Part shown: positions 1 to 30,471 of the stretch, one piece after another
Layout of the letters: the number at the start of each line of letters is the position of its first letter
How positions within the stretch are numbered: position 1 is the first letter of the stretch
Source of the DNA: an uncultured bacterium
GTDB lineage: Bacteria > Patescibacteriota > Minisyncoccia > Phycocordibacterales > PALSA-1337
DNA length: 39,931 bases
Reading direction: 5' to 3'
NCBI GenBank assembly: GCA_903837075.1
Contig: CAILTI010000010.1
Location: 1-39,931 of the forward strand
Notes under the pieces: generated by a model
Databases searched by the model: none
What the model saw: only the letters and a program-made list of their open reading frames with translations
What the model was told of the DNA's origin: nothing
Position numbers and translations under genes: made by a program

Positions 1-127
1 CCGTCAACCCAAGGGAGTCGGTGGTGCCCGAAATCTCGCCTCGTGCGGGCCTAAGGCAAAATCGATGACAGGGGGTAAGTCGTAACAAGGCACGGGTAGC
101 GGAAGCTGCTCGTGGAATATTTCAAAG
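1..127 (+). rRNA. rrs: 3'-terminal ~127 nt of a 16S rRNA gene (helix 44 descending strand, helix 45, 3' tail). The gene starts upstream of the window.
   Basis: CCGTCA at 1-6 matches the universal 1399-1404 block. AAGTCGTAACAAGG at 77-90 matches the universal 1492 block. Helix 45 is CACGGGTAGC (91-100), GGAA loop, GCTGCTCGTG (105-114). The mature 3' end is only approximate. Confidence 0.85.
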
Positions 128-325
128 AATCAACCGTTTTTTATCCATTCTTCGGAATGGGTAAATAAACTTATAGTCGATCGCTTCGACGTAAAGTCGG
201 AGTGGAGCCATGACTCTTGTGTGCTCTAAACACGAGTCCTTAACCGGGGAAGATTCCCGGACCACATGGGAGATATCAATTGAATCTCTCATGGGTGAAC
301 GGAACAAAATAGAGAGCTAAAACAA
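128..325 (+). ncRNA. Structured 16S 3' trailer (ETS-like), function unknown
   Basis: A chain of hairpins: 142-163 (9 bp, UUCG loop), 176-190 (GTCGA/TCGAC), 244-260 (CCGGG/CCCGG), 265-293 (10 bp). No convincing ORF; the 122..307 minus ORF is rejected. Confidence 0.4.
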
Positions 326-351
326 AAAACACCTTTAACTGGGTGTTTTTT
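326..351 (+). terminator. Rho-independent terminator ending the 16S transcription unit
   Basis: AAAACACC (326-333), 8-nt loop, GGTGTTTT (342-349), running into a T tract. Confidence 0.7.
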
Positions 352-471
352 GTTTATATAAGGGGTATATTTGAGCTGTGCAAAACCCTATCATTTATGC
401 TACAATAGTACATATGTACGAGTGTGATTAGGCCAAAGTTATTCATTAATTAGGGCCTATTATATTATTTT

Positions 472-2949
472 ATGGCCAAGAAGTCAGACAAACCCACCAC
501 AGGAGAACCGGTACCAGTCCGCGAAGGGAACGGTATTGTTGCTCGCTCCATCACTACAGAGATGCGTGAGTCATTTTTGGACTATGCCATGTCTGTTATC
601 ACGGATCGTGCGCTTCCAGATGTTCGTGATGGATTGAAACCTGTGCATCGCCGCATACTATATGCTATGCATGAAAAGGGTCTGACAGCGTCATCAAAAT
701 TCCGCAAATCAGCCGTCGTCGTTGGAGACACTATGGGTTCATATCACCCACACGGTGACGTCGCTATATATGACTCGATGGTCAAGATGGCACAACCATT
801 CACCATGCGCTATATGTTGGTACATGGTCAAGGAAACTTCGGAACAGTTGACGGTGATCCACCAGCTGCTATGCGTTATACAGAAGCCAAGATGTCACGT
901 ATCGCGAGTGAGCTACTCCGTGATATGGACAAGAACACGGTTGATTTCCGACCGAACTATGACGGATCAAAGAAAGAGCCAACAGTTTTGCCGACCACAG
1001 TGCCCAATCTCCTATTGAATGGTACGCTCGGTATCGCCGTTGGTATGGCCACAAATATCGCACCACACAATCTTCGCGAAGTTGTCGATGCTACAGTCTA
1101 TCTACTCGAGAACAAGGACGCCACGACTGAGGACTTGTTCCAGTTCATCAAAGGTCCTGATTTTCCAACTGGCGCTGTCATGTATGGCGAGAAAGACATA
1201 CATCATGCCTATGCTACCGGGCGTGGCGGTGTTACCGTACGTGGCGAAGCAGAGATCGTCGAGGACAAGAAAGGCCAATTCCAGATCATCATCACTTCCA
1301 TCCCTTATCGTGTCAACAAGTCCGAGCTCATCATCAAGATCGCCGATCTCGTTCGTGAGAAGATCATCGAGGGTGTAAAGGGTCTCCGTGATGAGTCAGA
1401 CAAGGATATCCGCATCGCCATAGACTTGAAACAAGGTTCATATCCGGAAAAAATACTAAATCTCCTCTACAAGCATACTCAGCTAGAAGAGGCTTTTCAT
1501 TTCAATACTGTCGCTCTAGTCCACGGAGTTCCGCAAACGCTTTCATTAAAATCCATCCTACAGGAATTCGTCGTGCACAGGATAGATGTCATACGACGTC
1601 GCACACAGTTCGATCTCACTAGGGCTCTAGACCGTGAGCATATCCTCCTAGGACTGAAGAAAGCCCTAGATCATATAGATGAGATCATCACCATGATCCG
1701 TGCTTCCAAGGACGCTGTAGAGGCTCATGCGGCCCTCATGAAGAAGTTCAAGTTCAGTGAAAAACAGGCAACTGCTATCCTGGAAATGAAACTGCAGAGA
1801 CTGGCAGGACTAGAGCGCAAGAAAGTTTTGGATGAATTGGCTGAAGTGCAGGCATTGATAGGGGAACTCAGATCTATCTTGGGCAGTGATAAACTCGTCC
1901 GCGGCATCATCAAGACCGAGCTCACTGATGTGAAGGCTCGATATGGTGACGATCGTCGCACGAGGATCGTGAAGCATGGCGTCAAAGATTTCAATCCTGA
2001 GGACCTGATAGCTGATGAGGAGTCAGTACTCGTCCTTACGAAAGGTGGCTATGTAAAGAGAACGGATCCAGACGAATACCGCAAACAGAAGCGCGGCGGT
2101 GTTGGAGTAGTCGATCTAGATACCAAAGAAGAGGACTTCATCTCACATCTCATATTTGCCTCGACGCACAATGACCTACTATTTTTTACTGACAAAGGCA
2201 AAGCTTTCCAGATCAAGATGTATGACATACCGGAGGGAAAACGTGCCACCAAAGGCAAGTCAGTCATGAACTTCATCTCTCTCGCTGATGGTGAGCGGGT
2301 GACTTCTATATTGCCGATGCCAAAGAACAAGAAAGAGGCTGAAGGACTATCTCTCATGATGGTCACCAAGAATGGTACAGGCAAGAAGACATCCGCAGCA
2401 CATTTCAAGGACGTGAGACGTTCTGGACTGATCGCGATCACACTGGAAGACGGTGATGAACTCATCTCTGCTTCATTCGTGACGAAAAATGACGAGGTCG
2501 TCATCGCCACCAAGGAAGGCCAGTCGATCCATTTCAAGGAGTCTGATGTTCGTGAAATGGGTAGGAATGCTGCCGGCGTGCGTGTTATCAAGCTCGACAA
2601 AGTCGATGGTGTTATCTCTGCTGACGTCGTCTCCAAGGATGCCACGAATCCAGCTCTGTTCGTCATGAGTTCAAATGGATATGGCAAAAAGACCAAACTT
2701 TCTGAATACAAAGTCCAGAATCGCGGTGGTTCCGGCATTCTCACTATGAATATAACGGGGAAGACTGGCTCCCTCATCGCTGCCAAGGTTGTAACTGATG
2801 ACAACGAAGAGATCGTAGCTATGTCAAAGAAATCCCAAGTCATCCGTGTCGATCTCAAGGAGATTCCTGCTCTCTCTCGCGCCACCCAAGGTGTTCGTGT
2901 CATGAAGCTTCGTGATGGAGATACTCTGGCGAGTCTGATCTGTTTGTAA
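472..2949 (+). CDS. gyrA: DNA gyrase subunit A
   Basis: 825 aa. N-terminal [20 protein letters not shown] and the HPHGD/AIYD motifs are present, with a C-terminal beta-pinwheel repeat region. Confidence 0.97.
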
Positions 2950-13437: not shown

Positions 13438-13577
13438 GCCTACGGCTTCAGTACAGTCTTCGTATTTTTTCCCCTTCTCCGCTAAAGCTACGAAGTGTCA
13501 AAAATATACTCAGACTCTTCGAGTCCTCCCCGCAAGCCTGTCGGCTTGCTCCAGCACAAACTCGCTTCGCTCGTTTG

Positions 13578-15304: not shown

Positions 15305-16006
15305 ATGAAACCCAAAACCATAGAGTCCTTAGCGAAACACATAGGTGTCGAATTCACCGACATCTCACTTTTGCGCATGGCATGTACTCATCGATCATTC
15401 CTGAATGAAAACAAGGGTTCTAGTAGTGAACACAATGAGCGACTCGAATTCTTGGGTGACGCTGTTCTCGAGCTCGTCGTCACGAGTTATCTGTTCAGAA
15501 AATATCCAAAGAAACAGGAAGGGGAATTGACCGCCTTCCGTTCTTCGATCGTGAATACGGTTAGCCTTACCAAGGTTGCGGAGAAGATCGGGCTGAATGA
15601 TTACATGCTCATGTCCAAAGGTGAATCCAAGGACAGTGGTCGTGCCCGTTCCGTCATTCTCGCCAATGCTGTCGAGGCAGTCATCGGTGCGATATATCTA
15701 GATGGTGGATACAACGCCGCGGCGAATTTTATTTCAGAAAGTATATTGAATACTATAGACATCGAGGAGATCGTCGCCAAGAAGACATGGATAGATGCCA
15801 AAAGTAAATTTCAGGAAAGGGCACAAGAGAAAGTCAGTATTACTCCGAATTACAAAACGCTCAAAGAAACTGGTCCTGACCATAACAAAGTATTCACTCT
15901 CGGTGTTTTCTTGGGTGATGTTCAGGTTGCTACAGGTTCAGGTTTATCAAAACAGGAAGCTGAGCAACAAGCGGCAGAGAAAGCTTTGCAGGTAAAGGGA
16001 TGGTAG
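15305..16006 (+). CDS. rnc: Ribonuclease III
   Basis: 233 aa with the signature ERLEFLGDAVLELVV and a C-terminal dsRBD (GPDHNKVFTLGVFL...GSGLSKQEAEQQAAEKAL). Confidence 0.95.
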   Translation: MKPKTIESLAKHIGVEFTDISLLRMACTHRSFLNENKGSSSEHNERLEFLGDAVLELVVTSYLFRKYPKKQEGELTAFRSSIVNTVSLTKVAEKIGLNDYMLMSKGESKDSGRARSVILANAVEAVIGAIYLDGGYNAAANFISESILNTIDIEEIVAKKTWIDAKSKFQERAQEKVSITPNYKTLKETGPDHNKVFTLGVFLGDVQVATGSGLSKQEAEQQAAEKALQVKGW

Positions 16007-16140: not shown

Positions 16141-19100
16141 ATGCACCTGAAATCATTAGAAATTTCCGGATTCAAATCATTCGCAAAAAAGGCGAATCTA
16201 GAGTTCAATACCCCGATAACAGGCATAGTAGGCCCGAATGGATCCGGGAAGTGTGTTGATGGTGGAACATTGGTTCAACTGGAGGACGGGTCTATTAAAC
16301 CGATCAAAGAACTATTTGATATGGCTCAATCTCGAGCTCGAGCGGTTACGATGTTCGATGATGGAATGGCGGTTATCGATACCAATGTTTCATTTAACGT
16401 TGCTGCACTCAATTTATATACATTAAAAACAGATTGGCGTCACGTTACGGCTTTTGTCCGTCGAACGGCACCAGAGAAGATGCTGGAGATCAACACACGA
16501 TCAGGAAGAACGATCACAGCTACTCCATATCATCCATTGTTCGGGTGTGAAAATGGGACTGTTCATTCTGTTCGTGCCGACGCAGTAAAAACTGGTTTAC
16601 GTATCGCTACGCCAAGATCATTGCCAGTTGTTGGGAGGATGCAGCGCATAATGATGAAAGATGTCGCAGCCGCTTTCAAACCAGAAGATAACGTCTATGT
16701 CCCATACAGTCCGATTCTAGAAGAGCTTATGGATCTGCGAATGATAGAAAAGAGTGTGACGACGACGAGAGCGCTTGAGAGAGTCTCTGGTGTTGAGGAG
16801 TGTGTCTTTGCTCGTGTTCGAATGTCTCAAGCTATGCCTGTAACATATCTCCCGGCTTTGTGTGGTCCATACATATATACGTTTGGGAACCGCACATTGA
16901 AATCAAAGGGTGAGGGAACTATGAAGATACCTGAATATATCGATGAGGAAGTTGCCAGATTCCTTGGATACATCATAGCTGAAGGTAGGACATCTAGAAA
17001 TGGCCAGGTTTGGTATGTGAATGATGATCCAGCATCTGTAGCCGATTATGTTTCATGTGTTCGCAAATGCTTTGGTTTGGAAGCAAAAGTATTTTCTTAT
17101 AAAGGCGATACAAAAGATGTCATTACATTTTCCATAACGCTTGCCCGCGTATTGGACAAAATATTTGGCATGACGATCGAAGGACCATCTCGAACAAAGA
17201 AAGTGCCGCCACAGATATTCCAGTCTCGCGATCATGTAGTCGAGGCATTCCTCGGTGCTCTATATGATGGTGATGGACATTTCAGTTTCAAGATATCGAA
17301 AAGTAAGGGTAATAGGCAAGCCTACATCGAGTATACTTCTGCAAGTGAAGAGTTGGCGCGTGGCGTTTCGACTCTGCTACTTAGGTTGGGAATACTCTCA
17401 GACATACAAAAAAAAGAGAAGTGCGCCACGAACACGATTAAAAAGACGGTGCGACCATATTGGTCAGTTTATGTCTATGGTAATGCAAATATTCGTCGCT
17501 TTGTGGAAAGGATCCAACCGAAAGGGAGGAAATCAGCTACCGTAAGAGCTATGCTCGATATGGAGGCAAATCAGGGAAATCCCAATCATGATCTTATTCC
17601 TGGCATTATTGAGCCTTTACATGAACTTATAAAAGAGGCTGGTGTCAGTGTAAAAAAAGCTCGTAAAGAAAACTCGACACTAGCTGCGTATTATGAGAGA
17701 CGCTGTCTGCCTAGTCGAGGAGGAGTGGATAGAGTCATCGATTATCTAGAGTCAATTGTTCCTGAATCAAATACAGCATGGCGACAATGTGCGAACGAAC
17801 TTCGTAAGTTTGCAAGCTCAGATGTTTTGTGGGATGAGATCGTTTCGGTACGTGAGATTCCATCTGGAGAGTACGTTTACGATCTCACAGTTGATGAAGA
17901 CCATAATTTTATAGCCAATAATATATTTGCTCACAATAGTAATGTGGCTGAGGCCTTCAGATTCGTCCTGGGCGAGCAATCTATCAAGTCTCTGCGTGGC
18001 AAACGTGGTGAAGACATGATCTGGAATGGTGGTGGGGAGACTAGCGGAGGTTCAGGTAAAGGTAATAGAGCCAGCGTTAAACTGACTTTCGATAATTCCA
18101 GAAAGATATTTTCCTCGATCGACTTTGATGAGGTAGTGATCGAACGTGTCGTACATAGAGACAATGCAAATGAATATCTACTGAATGGCAGCCAGGTACG
18201 TCTCAAAGATATCATCGAGTTGTTAGCAACTGCACATATCGGCGCCAGTGGTCACCACATCATTTCGCAAGGAGAGGCCGATAGGATACTTTCGGCGTCG
18301 ATCCGTGAACGTAGGGAGATGGTTGAAGACGCATTGGGACTCAAACTCTACCAATGGAAGAAACTGGAAAGTCTGCACAAGCTAGAACGTACCGAAGAAA
18401 ACATGAAGCAGGTAGAGTCACTGCGCCGAGAGATCGCACCACATATCAGATTCTTGAAGAAACAGGTGGAGAAAGTCGAGAAAGCTGAGGAGCTCCGCAA
18501 AGAATTGATCGTGCTATACCAGGAATACTTCGCTAGCGAAGAATACTATCTGAACTCTGAAAAGAGCCGACTAGTAAAAGCACTGTCTGGTCCGCAACAG
18601 GAATTGTCAGACCTCGACCGCGCTTTGGAGAATGCCAAGAAGATCATTACTGATTCGAAATTCAAGGATTCGAAAAGTGACGCCGTCATCTCTGTCGAAA
18701 ATAGATTGGCGAAGGTGAGAGCAGACAAAGACTCCGTCGTGCGTGAGTTGGGTCGCATCGAAGGAGAGATTTCTGCAAACAGGAGAGCGATCGAAAAGGA
18801 GCATTCGCGAATGCAGGATGAAGAGTCAAAGACCGTCTATCTCCGAGATGTCGAGGAAGTAGTCAGGAATATTGAGAGATTGAATGATTCAAAGATCGAG
18901 GGACTGGACACGGCGGAGAAGGCCAGGAATTTCTTTCTCGAGATCATCTCCTCTCTCAAGTCATTTATTACCAAAAATAGATCCACGCACGAGTCTTCGT
19001 TCATCGGTGATGCCGAAAAGGAGATCGCCAACTTGACCGAGAAGAAGGTAGCATCAGACGCTACACTGCAAGCTTTGTCGAGAGACGAAGTGCAATTCCG

Positions 19101-20193
19101 TGCAGAATATGATTCGTTGAGAGACATTATAGAGAAAGAAAAAGATACCAACCGCGAGGCGGAGAAAGATGTATTCAAGATCATCGCCAGGCAGAACGAA
19201 GTCAGGGCGGTCGTGAACAATCTCACAGCGTCAAAGTTGACCGTAGGCCATGAGGAAGAAGCTTTCAAGAGGGAGATGGGTGAAGCTCATATGTTGGTTG
19301 GTCGCGATGCAGTGAATTGGGTTCCGATGGACATCATGTCCGTCGGATCCGTATCTGTTTCAACTAGACAACAGCAGGAGGAGCGCCGCAAGAAGATCGA
19401 GCGCAACAAAGTACGCCTGGAAGACTCTGGTGGCAGTGGTGGTGCAGAAGTTATGAAAGAATTTCGCGAGACAGAAGAGCGCGACGCTTTTTTGGCGAAG
19501 GAGTTGGAGGATCTGAAGAAGGCCGGAGAAGAACTCAGGAAACTGACGACCGAACTCGATGCACGAATAGATATGGAATTCAAAACGGGAATATTGAAGA
19601 TAAATAGCGAATTCAAGAAATACTTTTCTCTGATGTTCGGTGGCGGACACGCGGAGTTGACTGTCGTCAGAGAAGTTAGGCGCAAGAGGAAGGGCGATAT
19701 GGATGATCTCAGTGGACTGCTGAGAGGTGAGAGCGATGGAATGTTATCAGGAGAAATGTCAGCCCGCTTGGAAGGAGAAAGCTACTCCTCCCAAAAGGGA
19801 GCGATCGTTAATAATGAAAGTAATGAAGAACTATTGCCCGAAGGCTTGGACGTCAACGTCAGTCTCCCGAGGAAGAAGATCAAAGGCTTGATGATGCTCT
19901 CTGGCGGAGAGAGGGCACTGACGTCGATCGCTTTACTTTTCGCGATCTCTCAGGTAAATCCTCCACCATTCGTCATACTCGATGAAACAGATGCGGCACT
20001 AGACGAGGCAAATTCACGCAAGTATGGAGACATGATCGCAGATCTTTCGGAACATTCACAACTCATCCTGATCACGCACAATAGGGAAACCATGTCTCGT
20101 GCTGGAGTACTCTATGGCATAACGATGGGATCTGACGGTGCTTCACGACTGCTCTCTATCCAATTCGAAGAGGCGGTCAAAGTAGCGAAGTGA
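16141..20193 (+). CDS. smc: SMC-type chromosome condensation ATPase, interrupted by an intein. The spliced product would be about 788 aa.
   Basis: The N terminus is LEISGFKSFA..GIVGPNGSGK. After the intein come SNVAEAFRFVLGEQS, long coiled coils, the C-terminal signature LSGGERALTSIALLFAI, and Walker B PFVILDETDAALD. Confidence 0.9.
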   Translation: MHLKSLEISGFKSFAKKANLEFNTPITGIVGPNGSGKCVDGGTLVQLEDGSIKPIKELFDMAQSRARAVTMFDDGMAVIDTNVSFNVAALNLYTLKTDWRHVTAFVRRTAPEKMLEINTRSGRTITATPYHPLFGCENGTVHSVRADAVKTGLRIATPRSLPVVGRMQRIMMKDVAAAFKPEDNVYVPYSPILEELMDLRMIEKSVTTTRALERVSGVEECVFARVRMSQAMPVTYLPALCGPYIYTFGNRTLKSKGEGTMKIPEYIDEEVARFLGYIIAEGRTSRNGQVWYVNDDPASVADYVSCVRKCFGLEAKVFSYKGDTKDVITFSITLARVLDKIFGMTIEGPSRTKKVPPQIFQSRDHVVEAFLGALYDGDGHFSFKISKSKGNRQAYIEYTSASEELARGVSTLLLRLGILSDIQKKEKCATNTIKKTVRPYWSVYVYGNANIRRFVERIQPKGRKSATVRAMLDMEANQGNPNHDLIPGIIEPLHELIKEAGVSVKKARKENSTLAAYYERRCLPSRGGVDRVIDYLESIVPESNTAWRQCANELRKFASSDVLWDEIVSVREIPSGEYVYDLTVDEDHNFIANNIFAHNSNVAEAFRFVLGEQSIKSLRGKRGEDMIWNGGGETSGGSGKGNRASVKLTFDNSRKIFSSIDFDEVVIERVVHRDNANEYLLNGSQVRLKDIIELLATAHIGASGHHIISQGEADRILSASIRERREMVEDALGLKLYQWKKLESLHKLERTEENMKQVESLRREIAPHIRFLKKQVEKVEKAEELRKELIVLYQEYFASEEYYLNSEKSRLVKALSGPQQELSDLDRALENAKKIITDSKFKDSKSDAVISVENRLAKVRADKDSVVRELGRIEGEISANRRAIEKEHSRMQDEESKTVYLRDVEEVVRNIERLNDSKIEGLDTAEKARNFFLEIISSLKSFITKNRSTHESSFIGDAEKEIANLTEKKVASDATLQALSRDEVQFRAEYDSLRDIIEKEKDTNREAEKDVFKIIARQNEVRAVVNNLTASKLTVGHEEEAFKREMGEAHMLVGRDAVNWVPMDIMSVGSVSVSTRQQQEERRKKIERNKVRLEDSGGSGGAEVMKEFRETEERDAFLAKELEDLKKAGEELRKLTTELDARIDMEFKTGILKINSEFKKYFSLMFGGGHAELTVVREVRRKRKGDMDDLSGLLRGESDGMLSGEMSARLEGESYSSQKGAIVNNESNEELLPEGLDVNVSLPRKKIKGLMMLSGGERALTSIALLFAISQVNPPPFVILDETDAALDEANSRKYGDMIADLSEHSQLILITHNRETMSRAGVLYGITMGSDGASRLLSIQFEEAVKVAK
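16252..17937 (+). mobile_element. Full-length intein (562 aa) with a LAGLIDADG homing endonuclease domain, inserted in the SMC Walker A loop
   Basis: It starts with Cys (GSGK|CVDGGTLV). Block B is TATPYHPLF. The LAGLIDADG motifs are FLGYIIAEGRTS and FLGALYDGDGHFS. It ends ...VYDLTVDEDHNFIANNIFAHN|S with Ser at +1, and removing it restores GPNGSGKS. Confidence 0.9.
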
Positions 20194-21576: not shown

Positions 21577-21715
21577 CATAGTTAGATATCGACGAGGCGA
21601 GGTCTTGCTGTATTTGACTACTGGTACCTTTCTGTATTAATATAAGTTAATAGTGAATCGTTCGTAGATGTGGCTATTACTAGCCCCCAATCACTAAACC
21701 CTATCCCCCAAATCT

Positions 21716-28649: not shown

Positions 28650-28797
28650 TCAACCTATGTTAAGCTACTTCTTACGCGCCACGAGGGCGTATTTACAAGA
28701 CTATTAATAATTTATCCCCTGCATTTTGGAATTCTCGCTGGGATACGAGTTCAATCTCGTCGAGTATTCCAAAGAGTCGGGGCACTAAAACAATAAT

Positions 28798-29988: not shown

Positions 29989-30072
29989 ACAGGGACTAGT
30001 GTCTAGGGGATAGTGACTAGTAATAGCAGATAAAACTAACCACTAACAACTAGTCACTAATCACTAAATAAA

Positions 30073-30471
30073 ATGCCTAACAAAGATACAATAAATAACG
30101 AAGTAGTTTCCCAGCCTGTTGTAAAGAAGGCTCCACGCACGAGGAAACCGAAGGCCGTCGCGGAGACGCCACACCTCCGGATCCGAGTGAGAGCTTACGA
30201 ACACAAGATACTGGACTCTTCTTTGAAACAGATCATGGATACGGCCGCCAGATACGATGCGGAGATACATGGTCCAGTGCCTCTGCCAACAGAGATCAAG
30301 AAGTACACCGTTAACCGTTCCTCATTCATCGACAAGAATTCCAGAGAGCAGTTCGAGATGAGAGTACACAAGAGGCTGATAGATATAGTGAATCCAAATC
30401 CGAAAGTTATCGAAGCACTCACAAATCTAAGTCTGCCGTCAGGAGTGAATATCGATGTGAAGATGATGTAA
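30073..30471 (+). CDS. rpsJ: 30S ribosomal protein S10 (with a ~30-aa basic N-terminal extension)
   Basis: LRIRVRAYEHKILD...GPVPLPT... Confidence 0.93.
   Translation: MPNKDTINNEVVSQPVVKKAPRTRKPKAVAETPHLRIRVRAYEHKILDSSLKQIMDTAARYDAEIHGPVPLPTEIKKYTVNRSSFIDKNSREQFEMRVHKRLIDIVNPNPKVIEALTNLSLPSGVNIDVKMM

Follow-up and report, generated by a model that had tools for sequence, protein, structure and literature searches.

In E. coli and B. subtilis, the flanks of the mature 16S rRNA form a long helix, the RNase III stalk of the pre-16S rRNA, whose 3' strand lies a few tens of nucleotides after the 16S end. Mammalian mitochondrial mRNAs are largely leaderless. Actinobacteria and Deinococcus retain a canonical anti-Shine–Dalgarno (anti-SD) sequence and use SD motifs on leadered genes. 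Leaderless-rich bacteria such as Actinobacteria and Deinococcus were reportedly treated by Zheng et al. in 2011 and as ‘group C’ of GeneMarkS-2, leaderless-rich bacteria are also said to be the subject of Cortes et al. in 2013, and Lim et al. in 2012 reportedly dealt with taxa without a consensus anti-SD.

Loss of the anti-SD motif has been published for a uL1-lacking subgroup of Parcubacteria, with a motif detection rate of 48% in Parcubacteria in the accessible part of that paper (Tsurumaki et al. 2022, RNA 28:1041, PMC9297842). The available text of Amin et al. 2018 (PMC6107228) names Blattabacterium, Chryseobacterium, some Mycoplasma, and Carsonella as taxa without a consensus anti-SD. SD-blind Bacteroidia initiate without SD pairing on A-rich leaders, according to the accessible sections of PMC13000453, and the mammalian mitochondrial 12S rRNA has no anti-SD, according to those of an Era review (PMC10582724). 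The available part of Brewer et al. 2019 (10.1101/705046) names Patescibacteria as a clade with exclusively unlinked rRNA genes. As anti-SD loss and unlinked rRNA genes are both in print, the core finding at the present locus, anti-SD loss in this lineage, is already known. A preliminary description of the locus had presented the loss as uncommon and as defining how this organism would start translation; the loss itself holds, but according to the accessible part of PMC9297842 it has already been published for an entire subgroup of Parcubacteria and is not specific to this organism.

The 16S rRNA tail and its distribution

The window, i.e., the whole stretch of 39,931 nucleotides that was analysed, is a contig that begins within the single 16S rRNA gene of its MAG. 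The features considered here are as follows.

1..127, + strand: 3' end of the 16S rRNA gene (3' strand of h44, h45, and tail), from cmscan with RF00177
91..114, + strand: helix 45 with a GGAA loop, from the alignment to the RF00177 structure line
115..128, + strand: 16S 3' tail GGAAUAUUUCAAAG, with UUUCA in place of CCUCC and GAAUA in place of GAUCA
129..295, + strand: 3' external transcribed spacer, containing five hairpins (140-166, 181-205, 212-238, 244-260, and 265-293), from folds and genus alignments
about 296..317, + strand: putative 3' strand of the pre-16S processing stem, TGAACGGAACAAAATAGAGAGC, complementary to the leader of relatives
320..355, + strand: terminator-like hairpin with an A-tract, a GC core, and a U-tract, from its fold
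398..406, + strand: extended -10-like box TGCTACAAT, a candidate promoter of the downstream gene, read from the sequence
472..2949, + strand: gyrA, with no SD-like motif upstream, from the NCBIfam equivalog NF004043 (1108 bits)

Model positions 1394-1533 of RF00177 (SSU_rRNA_bacteria) were aligned by cmscan to positions 1-127 of the window with 75.3 bits (E 1.2e-19) against a gathering score of 50, which identifies the 3' strand of h44 and the h45 fold of the 3' minor domain; the tip of h44 is shorter than in the model. Helix 45 with its GGAA loop occupies the positions given for it in the preliminary description (91-114), and its sequence also occurs in 119 public Parcubacteria loci, labelled Parcubacteria/Paceibacterota, with some labelled ‘Saccharibacteria’ or other names. 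Over the 13-14 nt past helix 45, the window reads GGAAUAUUUCAAAG and the model GGAUCACCUCCUUU, the consensus counterpart of the window tail being GGAUcACCUCCUUu. Where a canonical single-stranded tail would carry the anti-SD as GAUCACCUCCUU, the window has GAAUAUUUCAAAG. Neither CCTCC nor GGAGG was found in positions 1-352. Motif scan and cmscan together uphold the earlier claim of a non-canonical tail without CCTCC in this interval, and the covariance-model alignment that had been proposed as a check likewise gave no CCUCC tail. The mature 16S 3' end probably lies near the end of the window tail.

CCTCC was absent from all 29 genuine 16S tails of the sampled order (from 29 of 41 genomes, one per genome), including that of a genome assembled into one contig (G017), and none of these 29 genomes, the one-contig genome among them, contained a second, canonical rrs copy. 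Among the public loci carrying the h45 of the window, 0 of 119 had CCTCC within 20 nt. The comparison with other rrs copies and relatives thus agrees with the preliminary proposal that the anti-SD is truly missing, with no spliced-in CCUCC and no second canonical copy in the 29 order genomes. In the class, genuine tails were obtained from 92 of 151 genomes; by hand count, 32 of the 92 carried CCTCC, 13 differed from it by one change (TCTCC or ACTCC), and 47 had at least two changes or nothing recognisable of CCTCC.

A search for the ribosomal protein uL1 (PF00687) gave no hit in any of the 41 order genomes, including the MAG to which the window belongs, and a hit in all 14 controls; 33 of the 41 were at least 90% complete. 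Full-length Era (TIGR00436) was detected in 1 of 151 class genomes, and bS21 gave sub-threshold matches only, in 11 of 41 genomes. The MAG itself is 77% complete and contains no 23S and no multi-domain bS1, absences that prove little at that completeness. By its sequences, the lineage of the window combines the traits of the subgroup of Tsurumaki et al. (no CCTCCT, no uL1, and Parcubacteria affiliation, the last indirectly through the labels of loci with the identical h45), which places the source organism in the uL1-lacking Parcubacteria/Paceibacteria (GTDB class Paceibacteria).

The 3' external spacer and the separate rrs unit

Positions 128-355 are a 3' external spacer that is kept across the genus with covarying hairpins: in alignments A1 and A3 of the genus, double changes preserve pairing in 24 of 37 predicted trailer pairs, and positions 168-181 hold the word AACTTATAGTCGAT, which is conserved and single-stranded. 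The hairpin with the UUCG loop, at 140-166, folded at -12.2 kcal/mol (z -5.6) and that at 262-298 at -15.7 kcal/mol (z -3.5), while 244-260 (-10.3 kcal/mol, z -1.7) is weak alone and covaries in relatives. Among the stacked hairpins described earlier, those at 142-163, 244-260, and 265-293 were recovered; that at 176-190 was weak (-6.3 kcal/mol, z -1.5), and the genus consensus favours pairing of 181-187 with 199-205 in its place.

The spacer ends in TGAACGGAACAAAATAGAGAGC, which is complementary to the leader GCGCTTTCTATTTTGTTCCGTTC just 5' of 16S in same-genus loci. The window strand at 296-317 paired with the leaders of four same-genus relatives at -38 to -48 kcal/mol, and 7 of the 8 relatives examined formed a leader–trailer duplex, with z from -5.3 to -9.2 and no equal among 100 shuffles, the stems differing in sequence between families. 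Since the 16S leader of the window is off the contig, its own processing stem is deduced from these relatives. An ungapped-helix scan to +170 missed the stem, and duplexfold of leader against trailer over long stretches gave sprawling, non-significant duplexes; a genus alignment, followed by a wider trailer window, revealed it. The window encodes rnc at 15305-16006 (TIGR02191, 242.6 bits), and RNase III may cleave the 296-317 stem.

The hairpin at 320-355 folded at -18.5 kcal/mol (z -6.75), with 0 of 200 shuffles as good. Its stem is largely A-tract:U-tract, and a consensus terminator scan returned 0 sites. The terminator placed at 326-351 in the preliminary description falls within this terminator-like hairpin. 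An Rfam search of positions 100-480 with E up to 10 gave only sub-threshold matches, all on this hairpin, and no family reached its gathering score in the trailer.

The rrs gene is probably a stand-alone transcription unit; the 23S gene is located elsewhere, and what follows the tail is no ITS. A cmscan search gave no LSU match anywhere in the 39.9 kb of the window, and no tRNA was found before position 13577. The 16S and 23S genes share a strand in four relatives (G017, G021, G001, and G027), at a distance of 9-35 kb, and are on different contigs in a fifth (G034). The window scan and the relatives are in accord with the earlier view that this rrs is not linked to tRNA-Ile/Ala or 23S, with no 23S within a few kb 3' of 16S. 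As also described, gyrA comes next after the putative terminator. The candidate promoter box TGCTACAAT is kept in one same-genus locus (L020) and in part in two others (L006 and L016), and TAnnnT boxes upstream of the gyrA start begin at -14, -11, and -9. Of 142 other loci, a single one had a GyrA N-terminus near its 16S tail, at a distance of 4.3 kb, which makes the 16S-gyrA junction species- or sub-genus-specific; the junction is seemingly shared by G018.

Signals upstream of genes

Gene starts were set by a crude rule, which kept non-overlapping ORFs of 100 aa or more and took the first ATG in each, leaving out GTG and TTG starts and short genes. SD-like 4-mers occurred at -20..-3 in 65 of 584 genes, compared with 83 of 584 at -70..-53 and 98 of 584 mid-gene. 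Canonical-tail genomes of the same class, tried as a positive control for SD use, showed no SD enrichment; E. coli K-12 was therefore taken as the control, and with the same script it gave 51 of 96 against 10 of 96 and 4 of 96. The genome-wide check suggested in the preliminary description thus detected no SD enrichment over 584 genes. Its statement that eight genes (gyrA, tuf, rpsJ, rplC, rplD, rnc, smc, and clpB) lack such motifs was correct as to gene identities and for seven of the eight, while rnc has one AGGA within -20..-3. CTAA-rich words are enriched upstream of tuf, rpsJ, and clpB, which may reflect non-coding composition.

Little or no SD enrichment was likewise seen in eight other Patescibacteria whose tails keep a canonical CCUCC. 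SD use is thus missing more widely than the anti-SD itself, and for the same reason the anti-SD loss looks like the end of a relaxation, and a new mode of initiation does not look like its consequence.

A different signal was concentrated at one position: TAnnnT started at -12 in 99 of 584 genes, against 15.9 per background position (Poisson 1e-44), and TATAAT did so in 25 genes, with at most 7 at any other position. TG was present at -15/-14 in 47 of the 99 boxed genes (6% in the background). When stop-like codons were removed, 59 boxes remained at -12, compared with 21, 13, and 10 at other in-frame positions. The -35 element was weak (TTG near -35 in 9 of 59 versus 50 of 525). A -10 box at a fixed distance of -12..-7 from the start codon in many genes is the hallmark of leaderless transcription, and a sigma-70-type box so placed is expected to start transcription at the start codon; leaderless mRNAs are accordingly predicted for about 17-26% of genes. 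A search of the openly searchable literature, i.e., outside subscription journals and supplements, found no such prediction for this lineage, and the available parts of PMC12641178, PMC12641261, and PMC6851277 do not treat leaderless mRNAs in CPR. The supplements of Tsurumaki et al. 2022 and Amin et al. 2018 may list the lineages concerned.

Across genomes, sampled at only about 100 kb each, the -12 peak recurred in the same-genus genome G017 (17 of 90 versus 1.9) and in three of four other anti-SD-less genomes of the class, being absent in G360 (4 versus 3.2). Moderate peaks were also found in genomes with a canonical tail (G082, ratio 5.6; G406, 3.4; G091, 3.2). A clean correlation of anti-SD state with the -12 box did not emerge, with exceptions in both directions.

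Explanations and comparison with known systems

We consider it quite probable that the locus combines tail erosion under relaxed constraint, SD-free starts, leaderless mRNAs for part of the genes, and a stand-alone rrs. What is observed is that the motif is missing throughout the clade, that SD motifs are not enriched, that the -10 box keeps a fixed position, and that the processing stem and covarying hairpins exist; the leaderless transcripts, the history of relaxed constraint, cleavage by RNase III, and the mature 3' end are inferred. The 16S tail of this Paceibacteria MAG would have lost both the anti-SD pentamer and the Era-binding GAUCA, mostly through C-to-U changes across many Paceibacteria lineages, because nothing in the lineage would read the tail sequence any more, mRNAs being without SD and Era, which binds GAUCACCUCC, not being found. 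Initiation would proceed without SD pairing. Where a sigma-70-type -10 box lies at -12..-7, often as TGnTAnnnT (about 17-26% of genes), transcription would start at the start codon and give leaderless mRNAs; the other genes would have A/U-rich, G-poor leaders or be tightly coupled to the preceding gene. Loading of the unboxed genes would probably rely on unstructured leaders and a four-domain bS1-like protein encoded by relatives, the route for these roughly three quarters of genes being only a guess. The rrs gene would be transcribed alone, its structured 3' external spacer ending in the 3' strand of the processing stem, followed by the terminator.

A stronger version, about as easily wrong as right, is that initiation was rebuilt on leaderless mRNAs with an extended -10 abutting the ATG, that SD docking was given up stepwise at the level of the phylum, SD use being lost first, Era next, and CCUCC last as GAUCACCUCC eroded via UCUCC and CUUCU intermediates, and that the tail is kept solely as an arm of a pre-rRNA hairpin. 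If it is true, the clade would offer a natural parallel among bacteria to initiation of the mitochondrial type, and a system in which to test how ribosomes start without any SD system.

The last element can also be taken by itself: the former anti-SD strand would pair with the first trailer nucleotides, and only this pairing would be selected as a processing hairpin. Arm and counter-arm covaried over 133 distinct tails (TTCA-TGAA in 49 of 74, CTCA-TGAG in 7 of 8, and TCCA-TGGA in 16 of 25, with cross-matches of 0-1), and degenerate class members, inspected by eye, have CTCC..GGAG, CTCT..AGAG, and TTTCT..AGAAA. However, the stems are just 4-5 bp and A/U-rich, they fold no better than shuffles (-1.22 versus -1.23 kcal/mol), and each arm type may be one clade, so that few independent events are possible; the window itself has no cognate TGAA, only a marginal AUUU/GAAU stem (-0.1 kcal/mol). 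We regard this possibility as tentative; it is compatible with tail erosion under relaxed constraint and not mutually exclusive with it.

Initiation could instead be mainly leadered and driven by bS1 on A/U-rich unstructured leaders, as in Bacteroidia and mycoplasmas, the -12 box then reflecting short leaders or mis-called starts. The positioned box is missing from about 74-83% of genes, the sequence upstream of genes is rich in A/T and poor in G, position -1 being T or C, and a four-domain bS1-like gene was found in relatives (40 of 40 at E <=1e-12 and 39 of 40 at E <=1e-20). Nevertheless, the box is phased to one nucleotide with a spacing that fits transcription from the A of the ATG, and it carries an independent TG extension; such single-nucleotide phasing is hard to obtain from short leaders or mis-called starts, which makes this account unlikely.

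It is highly improbable that the SD:anti-SD pair was re-tuned, with the new tail UUUCAAAG pairing with a new upstream motif. The core GGAWUNNUUCMA, kept across the order, suggests some remaining constraint, but upstream windows (-22..-1, the only interval tested) formed a mean duplex of -2.11 kcal/mol with the tail of the window, compared with -2.35 and -2.24 kcal/mol at control positions, and the words enriched upstream are those of the -10 box or rich in A/T and do not complement the tail; the available text of Amin et al. 2018 (PMC6107228) reports no variant-SD/variant-anti-SD pair in 128 taxa. Finally, the chance of an assembly chimera joining a 16S fragment to unrelated sequence in or just after helix 45 is negligible: the fragment does lie at the very start of a MAG contig, a common break point of rRNA assemblies, but independently assembled genomes of other species in the genus have the identical tail and trailer, similarity to G018 extends past the terminator as far as the promoter region of gyrA, the last strand of the trailer complements the 16S leaders of relatives, and CCTCC is missing from 29 of 29 order tails and 119 of 119 public loci, which excludes an artefact.

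The lineage has a bacterial ribosome without any anti-SD, which is rare outside a few reduced lineages and shows SD docking to be dispensable for a free-standing, if symbiotic, bacterium. In these genomes, gene prediction guided by SD motifs will put starts in the wrong place, and rules that annotate the 16S 3' end by CCUCC fail. Because the trait has already been published for the clade, nothing new in kind comes from the window; its contribution lies in the structure of the replacement tail and the stand-alone rrs unit, the observation that SD use is already missing in Patescibacteria still keeping CCUCC, and a testable prediction, namely leaderless mRNAs from -10 boxes fixed at -12.

The subgroup of Tsurumaki et al. 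is alike in having no CCTCCT at the 16S 3' end, no uL1, often no bS21, and a bS1 of 3-4 domains, whereas the replacement tail, mRNA-side SD usage, promoter-start spacing, and the trailer are not described in the accessible part of PMC9297842. The taxa of Amin et al. 2018 share the lost anti-SD and the lack of SD enrichment, with losses that cluster in clades, many with reduced genomes; the available text names no CPR lineage, and here the loss spans much of a class with intermediates visible. Bacteroidia keep CCUCC hidden under bS21, bS18, and bS6, according to the accessible sections of PMC13000453, whereas here the sequence itself is absent and not sequestered. The mammalian mitochondrion is an organelle of another domain that keeps an Era homologue, which is mostly missing here. 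The leaderless-rich Actinobacteria and Deinococcus resemble this lineage in a -10 box at a fixed short distance and in having no SD upstream of those genes; in contrast, no SD system is left here, and the leaderless state is predicted from sequence. The unlinking is substantively the same as that of Brewer et al. 2019, to which the processing stem, structured spacer, and putative terminator of a stand-alone rrs are added. Overall, the pre-16S unit is similar to the RNase III stalk of model bacteria in its leader–trailer helix (7 of 8 relatives; the window holds the 3' strand only) and in the presence of rnc, but here approximately 170 nt, containing four or five conserved hairpins, separate the 3' strand from the end of the 16S.

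The 16S rRNA tail and its distribution

Positions 1394–1533 of the bacterial SSU_rRNA model matched positions 1–127 of the window (cmscan, 75.3 bits, E = 1.2e-19), and the covariance-model alignment confirmed helix 45 where the preliminary description had placed it. This helix and the elements that follow it are listed below by window position.

Features of the 16S rRNA 3′ end and the adjoining spacer
91–114: helix 45, with a GGAA loop, from the covariance-model alignment
140–166: first spacer hairpin, with a UUCG loop; other hairpins stand at the same place in relatives
168–181: AACTTATAGTCGAT, nearly invariant in the genus
296–317: TGAACGGAACAAAATAGAGAGC, complementary to the same-genus leader GCGCTTTCTATTTTGTTCCGTTC directly 5′ of the 16S rRNA
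320–355: hairpin with an A-tract and a U-tract (−18.5 kcal/mol)

The 14 nt directly after helix 45 read GGAAUAUUUCAAAG, where the bacterial model has GGAUcACCUCCUUu; alignment to the model yielded a tail without the anti-Shine-Dalgarno (anti-SD) motif. A motif search of positions 1–352 found no CCTCC, as had been claimed, and likewise no GGAGG. At the helix 44 tip (1–70), the cmscan alignment showed 7- and 6-nt gaps relative to the bacterial model; this shortening agrees with the ‘16Gap5’ region that PMC9297842 describes in CPR. The window starts contig C10 of its MAG (730 kb, 60 contigs, 77% complete, 45% G+C), which contained this 16S tail only and no assembled 23S.

Relatives were compared at several taxonomic depths. 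Within the order (40 relatives and the own genome), a loose 16S-tail pattern matched in 30 genomes; after two chance matches were removed by eye, 29 genomes had exactly one genuine tail each, and CCTCC was found in none of these 29 tails, including that of the one-contig genome G017. The order consensus was GGA-W-U-N-N-U-U-C-M-A. Scanning one genome per species with the helix-45 sequence of the window gave at least 119 loci; among the matches listed, CCTCC was absent within 20 nt 3′ of helix 45 (0/119), and the titles named Parcubacteria/Paceibacterota (Nomura-, Taylor-, Kaiser-, Zambryski-, Lloyd- and Staskawiczbacteria) or, in many cases, generically ‘Saccharibacteria’. The odd tail is thus not an artefact and is clade-wide. 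Ribosomal protein uL1 was also found in none of the 41 genomes of the order (controls, 14/14).

Across the phylum, the canonical tail pattern occurred in 160 of 301 genomes drawn, with 0/5 in the order of the window and 3/11 in others of its class. In a class sample of 151 genomes, 92 had one genuine tail after removal of one chance match; by hand count, 32 kept CCTCC, 13 had one change (TCTCC, ACTCC), and in 47 the motif had at least two changes or could not be recognised. Together with the intermediate forms CUUCU, UCUCU, UAUCC and UUUCC, these counts suggest that the motif is eroding stepwise, mostly by C-to-U changes.

Among 133 distinct tails, the arm replacing the anti-SD covaried with a counter-arm that lies a few nucleotides 3′ of it (TTCA/TGAA 49/74; CTCA/TGAG 7/8; TCCA/TGGA 16/25; cross-matches 0–1), and canonical and degenerate class tails looked alike by eye (CUCC..GGAG, CUCU..AGAG). 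The stems are short, their folding energy was no different from that of shuffles, and the window has no cognate counter-arm; we regard this putative hairpin as a lead.

Spacer, probable processing stem and gene neighbourhood

In an alignment with four same-genus loci, the spacer was conserved to about position 318. The RNAalifold consensus of nine genus sequences contained hairpins at 181–205, 212–238, 244–260 and 265–293, and 24 of the 37 consensus pairs were preserved through double changes. Of the stacked hairpins in the preliminary description, those now placed at 140–166, 244–260 and 265–293 stood, while the one at 176–190 gives way to 181–205 in the genus consensus. No Rfam family matched the spacer. 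In two same-genus loci (L023:1963-2100 and L016:1282-1430), inserted repeats with CTAGTAAC/CCAGTAAC-like words lay between the conserved AACTTATAGTCGAT and the next hairpin.

In 7 of the 8 relatives having both flanks, the 3′-terminal 45 nt of the leader paired with the trailer at +139 to +251 in a long duplex (z −5.3 to −9.2; none of 100 shuffled leaders was as good), and the eighth, locus L001, had a perfect 14-bp helix (z −1.7). The duplex sequences differ between families; the leader–trailer helix therefore covaries. Given the presence of rnc in the window, it is probably the usual pre-16S processing stalk, though the structured 3′ spacer inside it is unusually long here.

The terminator proposed at about 326–351 is matched by the hairpin and U-tract at 320–355, although a terminator consensus scan did not flag it. 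An extended −10-like box, TGCTACAAT (398–406), lies right 3′ of the putative rrs terminator and is kept in same-genus relatives, even with a different downstream gene. Two other points of the preliminary description held: gyrA comes next after the putative terminator, and rrs is not linked to 23S, which in relatives either precedes 16S by 9–35 kb on its strand or is on a separate contig. Of 142 other tails, just one had gyrA in its vicinity, and genome G018 apparently has the same order as the window; tRNA-Ile(GAT) follows 16S by several hundred nucleotides in many loci of other families, and tRNA-Leu(CAG) takes its place in four same-genus loci (L004, L006, L016, L023). In several relatives (loci L007, L008, L010, L011 and others), 16S gave split model matches or was far longer than 1.5 kb, which suggests insertions or introns inside 16S, as are known for CPR. 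A large intein appears to interrupt the SMC gene (16141–20193, + strand, 1350 aa), judging from NCBIfam intein_Nterm at residues 38–134 and intein-containing families to about residue 600, where the SMC model resumes.

Readers of the tail and predicted leaderless mRNAs

The gene set comprised ORFs that did not overlap one another and encoded 100 aa or more, each read from its first ATG. SD-like 4-mers (GGAG, GAGG, AGGA) occurred at −20..−3 in 65/584 genes of the own genome, compared with 83/584 at −70..−53 and 98/584 mid-gene; 5-mers occurred in 18/584 versus 16 and 21. There was thus no genome-wide enrichment, whereas 100 kb of E. coli K-12 run through the identical script gave 51/96 versus 10/96 and 4/96 for 4-mers. 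Hybridisation energy to the canonical tail was worse upstream of starts than elsewhere, and no excess pairing with the tail of the window was found there (−2.11 vs −2.35 and −2.24 kcal/mol). Of eight genes previously named as lacking an SD-like motif, seven had no SD-like 4-mer and rnc had one AGGA. SD enrichment was weak or absent in eight other Patescibacteria that keep CCUCC (~100–160 kb sampled each), apart from G091 (5-mers 8/72 vs 1 and 0) and the G+C-rich G082 (slight excess); anti-SD loss therefore seems more recent and narrower in distribution than SD-independence.

The Era GTPase binds GAUCACCUCC adjoining h45 (review PMC10582724) and is reported missing from most CPR. Only one of the 151 class genomes gave a full-length Era match; 25 further matches were confined to the GTPase domain. 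This sole copy (G358:C11:16566-17372, 235 bits) is in a genome whose 16S tail is unassembled. A bS1-like protein with about four S1 domains was present in 40/40 relatives at E ≤1e-12 (39 at E ≤1e-20); the own MAG gave a single-domain match only.

The top enriched 6-mer at −20..−1 in the own genome was TATAAT (68 vs 8.6 expected). TAnnnT began exactly at −12 in 99/584 genes (background 15.9 per position; 43 and 12 at the positions beside it), and TATAAT did so in 25 (≤7 at any other position). TG, which was not in the selection, stood at −15/−14 in 47 of the 99 boxed genes (background 6%), which makes the element an extended −10. Position −12 shares the reading frame of the ATG, so a TA there might come from a stop codon upstream; with the pattern restricted to TA[CT]nnT, 59 genes remained at −12 versus 21, 13 and 10 at −15, −9 and −18, and of the 33 with TG only 14 read TGA. 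The −35 signal was weak: T was enriched at −35/−34, yet TTG occurred in 9/59 versus 50/525. The box was rarest before genes ≤15 nt behind the previous gene (5/76) and commonest before divergent or well-separated genes (16–29%). With the hexamer at −12..−7, the expected transcription start is the A of ATG, so that about 17% of genes under the strict criterion, and 26% with 1 nt slack either way, are predicted to have leaderless mRNAs.

The −12 peak recurred in same-genus G017 (17/90 vs 1.9), in three anti-SD-less genomes (G441, G354, G408) and in degenerate G410 (ratios 4.6–5.8). Since anti-SD-less G360 had no peak (ratio 1.2) and canonical-tail genomes ranged from 0.7 to 5.6 (E. coli, 0.8), the peak tends to go with tail state but does not follow it strictly, among kin that are not independent.

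The leaders of tuf, rpsJ and clpB (about 28750–28797, 30030–30072 and 21670–21715) carry repeated CACTAA/CTAAC words; genome-wide, ACTAA occurred at −40..−1 in 46/584 genes versus 6/584 mid-gene, which may point to an element of leaders or may simply reflect the composition of non-coding DNA. The rpsJ ORF (30073–30471, + strand) has ~32 additional N-terminal residues before the uS10 model and no internal Met, in agreement with the larger uS10 noted for CPR in the available text of PMC9297842.

Relation to published systems

Available portions of three studies bear on these results. Tsurumaki et al. 2022 (PMC9297842) detected the CCTCCT anti-SD in only 48% of Parcubacteria and suggest that no SD helix forms there; Amin et al. 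2018 (PMC6107228) reported 128 taxa without a consensus anti-SD, with SD motifs missing too, and the text available does not name CPR lineages among them; and Brewer et al. 2019 (10.1101/705046) counted Patescibacteria with the clades in which rRNA genes are always unlinked. At the clade level, then, neither half of the finding is new: anti-SD loss has been published as a characteristic trait of this Parcubacteria subgroup, and the phylum is known to have unlinked rrs. The earlier claim of a true loss was right in observation and interpretation; the trait it described had been published. Relative to this literature, what appears new is the proposed anatomy of the 16S tail and its spacer, evidence for the absence of both known readers of GAUCACCUCC from the class, and the leaderless initiation predicted from phased extended −10 boxes.
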